DNA of 51,206 bases, the filler included, from Basidiobolus ranarum (taxonomy: Eukaryota): the NCBI GenBank assembly GCA_040143965.1. It is 3 parts of 3 records of this genome, joined end to end, with 100 filler letters (N's around TTAATTAATTAA, not from the genome) between each part and the next. Parts side by side here need not be neighbours in the genome. Positions count along the whole stretch, not along the records: positions 17,119 to 34,116 come from JASJQH010007194.1; 2 more parts are not named here. One strand, given 5' to 3'. The position numbers and the translations under genes were made by a program. The first letter of the stretch is position 1; each line of letters starts with the position of its first letter. Below are positions 20,870 through 22,747 of the stretch, piece by piece. The notes below the pieces were generated by a model that worked only from the letters and a program-made list of their open reading frames with translations, made no database searches and was not told the DNA's origin.

Positions 20870-21638
20870 TCACTCTCTGTTGTATAGTTCTTGATCAAAG
20901 AGATAAAGCCCGAGCTTATCACGTCCGACACGTTGTAATTGAGTAGAAAGATGAGCCAATTCAGAAATTACAGCCACCTCTCGGTGTAAGAAGTTACTCC
21001 TTCACGAGAAAAAAAGTTAATGATAGTAAAAGGAGAAGGGTAGGTAACATTCACCAACTTTACAAAGTCCTCTAATGCTGGGTCATTAACCTCACGTCCA
21101 TGGAGTGAGGTTGCAATAAATGCCTCGTTCGTTTCTTTCTTCATAGAAAGCGAGGCCTCTATTAAATGAAAGCAAATTTAACCCAATATTCAGTCACTTT
21201 AAAATAAGCTCTACCTCAACTTACCAACCACATCATAGGCAGACTCCCATTCAGTTTTTGGTGAAGAAATAGATGCAAGTTGAACAATACCACCTCGTTG
21301 GTTCTGATAATCGATTAATTTCCAAACTTGTTCGTATTCCTAAACAAATATATCGTATCAAAGAATATCCTCAGGGTACTGACTCTCAATAGTGCAAAAT
21401 GTACCTCATCCGAGAGTTTTTTGAAATACTTTTGTAAACCCTAAAGGATAAAATTTGGTTAGGAAAATCAAGTCACTAGATAAAAGAGAACTTGATGCTC
21501 AACTGGTAAAGCAACGTTATCCCTTCCAAAATATGTTGAAGCTGATAAGTGAATGTAGTGAGAATTGTATTTCACTGTAATTTGTTGATTGAGTAAGTCT
21601 TCAGAAGCAGTAGTGAAGTTTTGTTTGGCGAGGGACAT
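20870..21638 (-). CDS. Ferritin subunit lacking the ferroxidase centre (L-chain-like), 171 aa, 5 exons
   Basis: Exons 21638-21504, 21440-21405, 21339-21225, 21158-21059 and 20999-20870 (516 nt): MSLAKQNF..ITVKYNSHYIH..RDNVALP|GLQKYFKKLSDE|EYEQVWKLIDYQNQRGG..|ASLSMKKETN..DPALEDFVK|SNFLHREV..QRVGRDKLGLYLFDQELYNRE*. Aligns without gaps to the neighbouring ferritin. Confidence 0.88.
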
Positions 21639-22207
21639 GATTTGAAGTAATGTAATTCGCAGCAAGGACTTGGTGAGTCAAGTCTTTTAAATGATTGTAA
21701 TAGGATGACGGAATACTGTCGTGAATACTGCCACTTATAGGTTCATCAAGCTAAACCTCACTCTTACTATCTTTAGATTTAGTCAGGCTCACTCGAGTGG
21801 AACTGATCCATGAGCTGATCCTGCGCAGTTTCGGAGTGAAATGAGAAAATGTGCGGGGCCCCTCTACTCTTCCAGCAAGTAATAGTGAAGAGCAAATCAA
21901 AGCCTACTTGCCAACTCATCAAAATGCTATCTAGAGTGGTATAATTGGCTGGTGTTCAACCTATTCTAGATCGTTAGTTGGCCTTAAAGTGATTGAGATT
22001 TATGGTGGAGTGTTCATTGGAGGTGATTCAGCTCTCCTTGGCCAAGCCACTAGAATATATGCTATATCAAGTTCTTCTCACTGACAAATCCAGTTTAGGG
22101 TGAGCAGTACGGGAGACAATAGTTATTTGAATATAAAGCCCTCCTCTTGGTGCTAATCCCATCAATTCATCAATCTCTTTTGATTCTCTCTTAAAACAAC
22201 ACTCAAT

Positions 22208-22747
22208 ATGTCTCTTGCCAAGCAGAACTTTGCCATTGCCTCCGAGGAAGGTATCAACAATCAGATCAACATGGAGTTTACTGCTATGTACACGTACACC
22301 TCAATGGCCGCTTACTTTGATCGTGATAATGTCGCTTTACCAGGTTTAGCCAAATTCTTCAGAGAAAGTGCGGAAGAAGAACGTGAACACGCCCAAAAAT
22401 TGATCGACTATCAAAACCAACGTGGTGGTAGAGTCAATCTCCAACAAATACCCAATCCCTCTTGTGAATGGCAATCGGCCAAGAACGCAGTTGAAGCAGC
22501 ACTTCAACTTGAAAAGGATGTTAACAAATCCTTGCTAAACCTACATAATATTTCGGCCGAAAATGGGGATCCACAGTTTTGTGATTTCATTGAAACCCAC
22601 TATCTTACCGAGCAAGTAGAATCCATTAAGAAAATCTCCGACTTGGTAACACAACTTAATCGTGTAGGTGGTGATGGTTTAGGCCTTTACCTTTGGGATC
22701 GCGAACTTTACCATCATGGTACTTCGTCCACTAACATTGGAAATTAA
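22208..22747 (+). CDS. Ferritin, H-type with intact ferroxidase centre, intronless
   Basis: INMEFTAMYTY, YFDRDNVALPG, EEREHAQKL, QNQRGG, LEKDVN, DPQFCDFIETHYLTEQV. Equivalents of human H-chain E27, Y34, E61, E62, H65, E107 and Q141 are all present. Confidence 0.96.
   Translation: MSLAKQNFAIASEEGINNQINMEFTAMYTYTSMAAYFDRDNVALPGLAKFFRESAEEEREHAQKLIDYQNQRGGRVNLQQIPNPSCEWQSAKNAVEAALQLEKDVNKSLLNLHNISAENGDPQFCDFIETHYLTEQVESIKKISDLVTQLNRVGGDGLGLYLWDRELYHHGTSSTNIGN

Follow-up and report, generated by a model that had tools for sequence, protein, structure and literature searches.

Two ferritin genes lie head to head between positions 20,870 and 22,747 of the stretch of Basidiobolus ranarum DNA analysed here (assembly GCA_040143965.1; 51,206 nucleotides, filler included, and called 'the window' throughout), in the part taken from record JASJQH010007194.1. 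The 'plus copy' encodes a catalytic chain of the heavy (H) type and the 'minus copy', on the opposite strand, a chain from which the ferroxidase ligands have been lost. A division of labour between H chains and non-catalytic light (L) chains is regarded as a feature of animals. As far as its sequence allows us to judge, the product of the minus copy is a real, conserved and non-catalytic chain, which appears to be independent of the animal L chains and whose likeness to them is limited.

A divergent pair of ferritin genes

An earlier note on this DNA had described two ferritin genes diverging from a 569-bp spacer, with shared MSLAKQNF starts and a gapless alignment of their products; the coordinates and residues are all to be found in the sequence (Table 1). 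The introns of the minus copy are all of the GT..AG type and measure 63, 65, 66 and 59 nt, although two of its four donors, GTTGAG and GTTGGT, depart from the consensus. Their description as four 'in-frame' introns stands as regards their number and the full-length product, but the term is loose, in that splicing alone restores the frame; intron 1 contains a stop, and not every intron length is divisible by 3. The spliced product is identical at every residue to B. ranarum K7432_006864 (P0121 in our set of proteins), and an independent public gene model therefore has the same four introns.

Table 1. Positions in the window of the ferritin gene pair, of its spacer and of flanking features
Feature	Position	Strand	Details
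H-type ferritin gene ('plus copy')	22208..22747	+	intronless open reading frame (ORF), 179 amino acids (aa) plus stop; ATG at 22208, stop codon ends at 22747
Ferroxidase-dead ferritin gene ('minus copy', L-like)	20870..21638	-	5 exons, 4 introns, 171 aa; ATG at 21638
Minus copy, exon 1	21504..21638	-	codons 1-45, then phase-0 intron; donor GTTGAG (G at 21503); 100% match to P0121
Minus copy, exon 2	21405..21440	-	codons 46-57, then phase-0 intron; donor GTACAT
Minus copy, exon 3	21225..21339	-	codons 58-95 and base 1 of codon 96; donor GTAAGT
Minus copy, exon 4	21059..21158	-	runs to base 2 of codon 129; donor GTTGGT (G at 21058)
Minus copy, exon 5	20870..20999	-	codons 129-171 and TGA stop
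Divergent spacer	21639..22207	.	569 bp; presumed site of both promoters
TATA-like box, plus gene	22132-22137	+	TATAAA
TATA-like box, minus gene	21734-21739	-	TATAAG
GGGGCCCC in the spacer	21855-21862		
Third GGGGCCCC	23010-23017		122 bp further downstream
Inverted repeat, spacer arm	21798-21869		imperfect, ~70 nt
Inverted repeat, downstream arm	22882-22953		
SCARNA18 match (sub-threshold)	22903-22989	+	20.9 bits, E 0.23
(TA)n microsatellite	20806-20840		~30 bp 3' of the minus-gene stop
TA-rich stretch	22807-22825		downstream of the plus gene
Ribosomal protein L5 gene	17121-17699	-	Pfam Ribosomal_L5e, 7.5e-78
N run	~17067-17120		at the ribosomal protein L5 gene

Residues 1-170 of the two proteins can be aligned without any gap, and 82 of them are identical; the minus copy bears no added domain or extension and, by inspection, neither chain is extended at its N-terminus, both starting at the conserved ferritin N-terminus. 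All the proteins concerned belong to Pfam family Ferritin (PF00210, curated cut-off 24.5 bits), with scores of 136.7 bits (7e-40) for the plus copy, 80.1 for the minus copy and 75.9 for its Basidiobolus meristosporus ortholog (P0122). An AlphaFold2 model of P0121 (predicted local distance difference test, pLDDT, 89.2; predicted template modelling score, pTM, 0.82) places helices A-E at residues 10-37, 45-71, 91-118, 122-153 and 158-170, with the fifth helix, E, predicted to be intact. Foldseek aligns this model to solved 24-mer ferritins with a template modelling (TM) score of 0.94, and its alignments give the Basidiobolus L-like chain 36-38% identity to human H chains.

The closest match to the plus protein is the B. 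meristosporus ferritin P0001 (95%), with three B. ranarum ferritins at 80-83%, in a search of which 1213 candidates were assessed and 1148 proteins retained at E <= 0.001. None of the best 120 of these 1148 matches it at 100%, and, since its minus neighbour is itself an annotated B. ranarum protein, the H gene may be absent from the public annotation of this species.

The ferroxidase site and coding constraint

Residues are given in human H-chain numbering as we take it to run, which agrees with the match ranges of 1fha_A and with the residues as named in PMC8395497. At the 11 functional columns considered (27, 34, 61, 62, 65, 107, 131, 134, 137, 140 and 141), the plus copy reads E, Y, E, E, H, E, D, E, Y, E and Q, such that all ferroxidase residues are canonical, as the earlier note had claimed, and those of the three-fold pore as well. 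The minus copy reads K, H, E, E, Q, K, D, K, F, R and E; the changes first listed for it (E27K, Y34H, H65Q, E107K, Y137F, E140R and Q141E) are all present, and E134K, in the three-fold pore, has to be added to them. The same columns in the B. meristosporus ortholog read K, H, K, E, D, K, N, K, F, Q and E; as both site patterns share them, K27, H34, E62, K107, K134, F137 and E141 are fixed in the two species.

Put in terms of the H-type ligand set (E27, E62, H65, E107 and Q141, with Y34), the plus copy is complete and the minus copy reads K, E, Q, K and E, with H34. The canonical set of five is found in 201 of 273 aligned ferritins, an alignment made up of the window plus protein and 272 database proteins from the homology searches. 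Since lysines have taken the place of two iron-binding carboxylates and the histidine is missing, the minus-copy site cannot bind the di-iron substrate.

Searches with P0121, one of them word-indexed (17 proteins among 62 candidates) and the other with HMMER over 1.84 billion representatives (2131 hits), each returned the same single close relative, P0122 of B. meristosporus, which is 73-74% identical and is known from a partial model 147 residues long; the next matches are ordinary ferritins, at 47-50% identity. Among the proteins searched, a ferroxidase-dead chain with this site is restricted to Basidiobolus.

Across the 147 residues shared by P0121 and P0122, 107 are identical, with zero gaps and zero stops, and the 40 differences have a mean BLOSUM62 score of +0.45. 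When the window coding sequence was instead mutated randomly until 40 residues differed (n=1000), the simulated neutral copies averaged -0.41 +/- 0.26, with 0/1000 reaching the observed score and 925/1000 gaining a stop codon; the mutation model is a simple one and these figures are accordingly rough. The observed differences also tend to fall where H-type ferritins are less strongly conserved (Mann-Whitney p 0.002). Between the plus and minus genes, identity at codon positions 1, 2 and 3 is 58, 71 and 32% respectively, the nonsynonymous divergence (dN) being 0.49 and the synonymous divergence (dS) saturated. Neutral evolution of the minus copy, which the earlier note had raised as a point to be checked, is not borne out by the protein-level simulations, and we conclude that selection maintains the minus copy as a ferritin of full length from which the ferroxidase ligands are gone.

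Function and origin of the dead chain

We favour, with somewhat more confidence than doubt, a reading in which the minus gene encodes a folded and selected ferritin subunit that would not itself oxidise Fe(II), and that would most likely act in mixed shells with H-type subunits. With E62 kept, and with K27, K107 and E141 in place, the former metal site may close into a charge-balanced Lys/Glu network, in which E62 and E141 would pair with K27 and K107. The L-like subunit could be built into 24-subunit shells alongside catalytic H-type subunits, for which the neighbour across the spacer is one candidate and the remaining H paralogs in the genome are others; such mixed shells would contain fewer ferroxidase centres each, and E134K would make the three-fold iron-entry pores less negatively charged, so that uptake and storage might be tuned.

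Co-assembly of the L-like and H chains is plausible. A complex of the plus chain with P0121 modelled by ESMFold2 scored 0.83, against 0.00 for the best of three controls, a mark that is reached by 51/78 solved complexes and by 2/108 mismatched pairs (39/65 and 2/126, respectively, for eukaryotes). Contacts agreed to at least 98% between runs, with a partner pLDDT of at least 92, and the modelled interface corresponds to the canonical two-fold ferritin dimer, formed by residues 28-41 and 59-86. Identity of the minus copy to its H neighbour is 19/30 at interface positions, compared with 63/140 elsewhere; an equally strong bias is seen in 4/98 comparison ferritins, chosen to be 42-56% identical to the plus copy over 150 or more aligned positions. 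We regard it as a hint rather than as proof.

A number of observations weigh against the mixed-shell reading. Many ferritin cages have been solved, and the success of the modelled complex may reflect only likeness to them, through the memory of the model; nor does it distinguish a heteromer from an L-like homomer. The enrichment of identities at the interface is weak (Fisher p 0.074). In the helix B cavity, at positions 57, 60, 61, 64 and 67, which we take to be the L-chain nucleation site, the minus copy reads K, D, E, E and W, with 3 acidic residues, against E, E, E, E and Q, with 4, in the H neighbour, and the B. meristosporus ortholog has merely 2; the acidic DEEYE patch pointed out in the earlier note is indeed present, but as a retained stretch of helix B and not as a gain of cavity carboxylates over the H chain. 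Lys134 would probably disfavour the entry of cations into the pore, so that the L-like chain would be no better a mineraliser in any obvious way. With a path of 0.45 vs 0.059, the L-like pair (the minus copy and its ortholog) also evolves ~7-8x faster than the two H orthologs, and constraint on it is therefore relaxed. Finally, use of the GTTGAG and GTTGGT donors is presumed from homology and from two public gene models.

The rapid evolution of the minus copy relative to the H copy, its seven replaced functional residues and its two non-consensus donors could be taken as marks of a recently inactivated and unused duplicate, either silent or in decay. We consider this very improbable: the frame is open through all five exons of the window gene, the B. 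meristosporus model has acquired none of the stops that neutral change of equal extent almost always brought with it, substitutions are conservative and avoid conserved columns, codon position 3 is much more diverged than positions 1 and 2, the fold is predicted with confidence, and the replaced site residues are identical in both species. Fold, coding constraint and conservative change thus strongly oppose a decaying copy. Another alternative is a stand-alone, neofunctionalised homologue that forms its own cage, or a smaller oligomer, in a role other than classic H-chain iron storage; this might be that of a chaperone-like or stress protein, of which the artemin of Artemia provides an example among ferritin homologues, or of a store or buffer that needs neither a ferroxidase centre nor acidic pores. 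The loss of both the catalytic site and the pore carboxylate would suit such a protein, as would a long branch (1.0-1.1 changes per column) under purifying selection, which fits a change of function, and a fold that is predicted to be intact, helix E included. We nevertheless think it unlikely, as the two-fold interface is, if anything, better kept towards the H neighbour, the heterodimer model passes its controls, the head-to-head placement with an H gene suggests joint use, and the chain, gapless against H over its 171 aa, has no extra domain or extension.

Shared regulation of the two genes is plausible, and we would expect them to be co-expressed from the spacer. The arrangement may extend to B. 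meristosporus, whose H and L-like proteins are encoded on contigs of equal length (166294), a coincidence that does not amount to proof that the genes adjoin there. A motif scan finds one TATA-like box for each gene, along with two CCAAT and one GGGGCCCC, all of which are consensus matches only, with a putative role in the promoters; no WGATAA (GATA-type) site occurs in the 569 bp, and a scan against Rfam gave no iron-responsive element (IRE) or other family above threshold at the locus. The SCARNA18 match listed in Table 1 falls well short of its gathering score of 40, is probably due to chance, and was rejected; it overlaps the downstream arm of an imperfect inverted repeat that brackets the plus ferritin gene. 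The local alignment score of this repeat is 34, compared with a maximum of 23 in 500 shuffles, and GGGGCCCC forms its inner ends; with the third copy further downstream, there are just three copies of GGGGCCCC in 51 kb, where 0.09 would be expected and where 0/100 shuffles reached 3. The inverted repeat, with its GGGGCCCC ends, could be a cis element, or the remnant of an insertion into a foldback element. Downstream of the two genes, the TA-rich stretch beyond the plus gene resembles the (TA)n microsatellite beyond the minus gene. Neighbouring ORFs encode glutamine synthetase, ribosomal protein L5, a Sel1-repeat protein and a RhoGAP protein, none of them iron-related; the N run beside the ribosomal protein L5 gene is part of 176 N in the window overall.

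Turning to the origin of the dead chain, we built a quick tree from 70 of the 273 aligned rows, picked by hand (five animals, seven rows without a name and, for the rest, named representatives of the fungi), and a more careful one from 53 hand-picked rows, which left out the long unnamed rows P0128, P0129, P0140 and P0066, Amoeboaphelidium, Acropora and some near-duplicates. In the careful tree, 49 fungal rows, among them the L-like pair, are split from 4 animal rows, none of which is an L chain, by a branch with support of 100/99; the dead fungal chain would thus have arisen independently of the animal L chains. An independent origin, as put forward in the earlier note, is in this sense supported. 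We considered, and rejected, a recent duplication that gave rise to the two genes or gene conversion of one by the other, given a third-position identity of 32% and use of the same codon at only 37/82 identical residues; the shared KLIDYQNQRGG stretch has 88% DNA identity between the copies. Likewise, the common MSLAKQNF start was not accepted as evidence that the copies are close kin: the aligned fungal ferritins share it as their consensus N-terminus, and it is hence no sign of a recent local duplication.

The alignment also contains a second group of ferritins from Mucoromycota, here called 'type 2', with K/R at 134 and a non-acidic residue at 131 in 22/22 rows (P0077, P0079, P0090, P0098, P0110, P0028, P0069, P0083, P0097, P0088, P0104, P0124, P0126 and others). 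Its members come from Mortierellomycota, Glomeromycota, Endogonales, Bifiguratus, Umbelopsis and Mucorales; 15/22 have all five core ligands, and 7/22 have ligands replaced, namely rows from Umbelopsis, Apophysomyces and Geosiphon (E62Q/N, H65R/S and Q141R/K) and the unnamed P0129, P0140 and P0073. Basidiobolus is therefore not the sole fungus with a ligand-altered paralog, although the K27/K107/E141 set is found in none of the 22 rows.

Whatever the function of the dead chain, it may accordingly be the Basidiobolus member of this old type-2 lineage of early-diverging fungi, in which basic three-fold-pore residues go with ferroxidase ligands lost several times, and not a Basidiobolus-specific duplicate of the neighbouring H gene; we would put the chances of this at slightly below even. 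The L-like pair has K134, and residue 131 is N in B. meristosporus, although the window copy retains D. In the careful tree the pair falls within an 18-row clade that contains all of the type-2 rows (ultrafast bootstrap, UFboot, 81; Shimodaira-Hasegawa-like approximate likelihood ratio test, SH-aLRT, 98), and both the saturated dS between the two window genes and the similar absence of ligands from type-2 members in Apophysomyces, Umbelopsis and Geosiphon speak for this origin. Once the 11 functional columns are removed, however, support drops to 67 and the pair comes to lie beside the long Syncephalis/Thamnocephalis branch. Long-branch attraction is a real risk; the pair ends up in a polytomy when these 53 rows are put through the quick method, and a clade uniting all Basidiobolus ferritins is not rejected by approximately unbiased (AU) tests (p 0.377 and p 0.231). 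As for the phylogeny that the earlier note had called for, the L-like pair lies within the fungal ferritins, where a place in the type-2 clade competes with an all-Basidiobolus clade.

Drawing these strands together, we offer a more speculative model, which we ourselves regard as doubtful. Early-diverging fungi might possess an old and previously undescribed two-chain ferritin system, comprising a catalytic chain with an acidic pore and a basic-pore chain that has repeatedly lost its ferroxidase centre (in Basidiobolus, in Umbelopsis/Mucorales and, partly, in Geosiphon), and that would be an analogue of the L chain independent of animals; in Basidiobolus, the two genes would still be kept head to head under one bidirectional control region, with mixed shells setting the uptake and release of iron.

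A dead chain kept by selection beside a catalytic partner provides a simple two-gene system for study, which could show whether mixed shells have arisen convergently, how pore charge is tuned, and what a non-catalytic chain contributes without extra nucleation carboxylates. The broader finding, of a second fungal clade whose pore residues are basic and whose ligands have been lost repeatedly, also touches the Mucorales, in which iron handling matters for disease. The function of fungal ferritins is almost unstudied, to go by PMC4133162.

Comparison with known ferritin systems

Among fungi, the nearest counterparts are the type-2 proteins of Mucoromycota, represented by database entries only (Mortierella, Umbelopsis K450DRAFT_261214 and Apophysomyces). 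They resemble the Basidiobolus chain in their basic residue 134, in the ligand-poor state of some members and in their grouping with the L-like pair in the careful tree, and differ in that most keep the five core ligands and none has the Basidiobolus combination at 27, 107 and 141. Two ferritin genes are reported for Lichtheimia in PMC4133162, which also states that nothing is known of the functions of fungal ferritins. In the literature searched we found neither a description of a non-catalytic fungal ferritin chain, in line with the earlier note's view that no fungal L-type chain has been described, nor one of a type-2 clade, although fungal sequences may be among those given in PMC4133162 (Figure S6) and PMC8395497 (Table S1); the papers found that join Basidiobolus with ferritin are, by title and abstract, clinical or unrelated. 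The other counterparts come from animals.

The vertebrate L chain and the Basidiobolus chain are each paralogous to a catalytic chain, and each has kept the ferritin fold but not the di-iron ligands. A salt bridge occupies the former metal site of the vertebrate chain, and Lys/Glu pairs would do so in Basidiobolus. The means differ, in that vertebrate L chains have Lys at position 62, whereas the Basidiobolus chain keeps E62 and has Lys at 27 and 107; it also differs from the vertebrate chain in having Lys as pore residue 134, in having fewer cavity carboxylates than its H neighbour, not more, and in its separate origin. The L subunits of known ferritins have a role in nucleation and storage (PMC8395497). 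The 'L-type' label of the earlier note therefore fits the lost ligands and the retained fold, but neither the cavity nor the pore, where Lys has replaced E134. Vertebrate L chains form heteropolymeric 24-mers with H chains, and in Basidiobolus such co-assembly is a prediction of the model.

Insect ferritin chains are secreted and have signal peptides; both Basidiobolus chains, in contrast, begin at MSLAKQNF, and the Rfam scan found no IRE at their locus. What the two have in common is the arrangement of a catalytic and a non-catalytic gene head to head, in Drosophila as Fer1HCH and Fer2LCH and in the mosquito Aedes as a heavy-chain homologue (HCH) and a light-chain homologue (LCH1), for which common expression control elements are described (PMC5751084). 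The likeness to insect pairs drawn in the earlier note thus holds for the layout of the genes, and not for the signal peptide extension.

The closest described parallel to the dead chain is provided by the 'atypical' ferritins of sponges and other invertebrates, such as HdF2 and EmF2 (Adameyko et al. 2021, PMC8395497). These are cytosolic proteins of no known function, with no signal peptide and no IRE, that combine several replacements in the ferroxidase centre and at E134 with less than 49% identity to human H; in the sponge HdF2 the replacements are E27Q, E61S, E62K, H65S and E134A. The Basidiobolus L-like chain, at 36-38% identity to human H and with at least six replacements (27, 65, 107, 134 and 141; also 34, 137 and 140), falls within the same bounds, a match that is to be read as a likeness and not as a clade, the class having been defined for invertebrates. 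It belongs, moreover, to another kingdom and has other replacements at its site, and it stands apart from the atypical ferritins in that this site has been kept in two species and that its gene is paired with an H gene.

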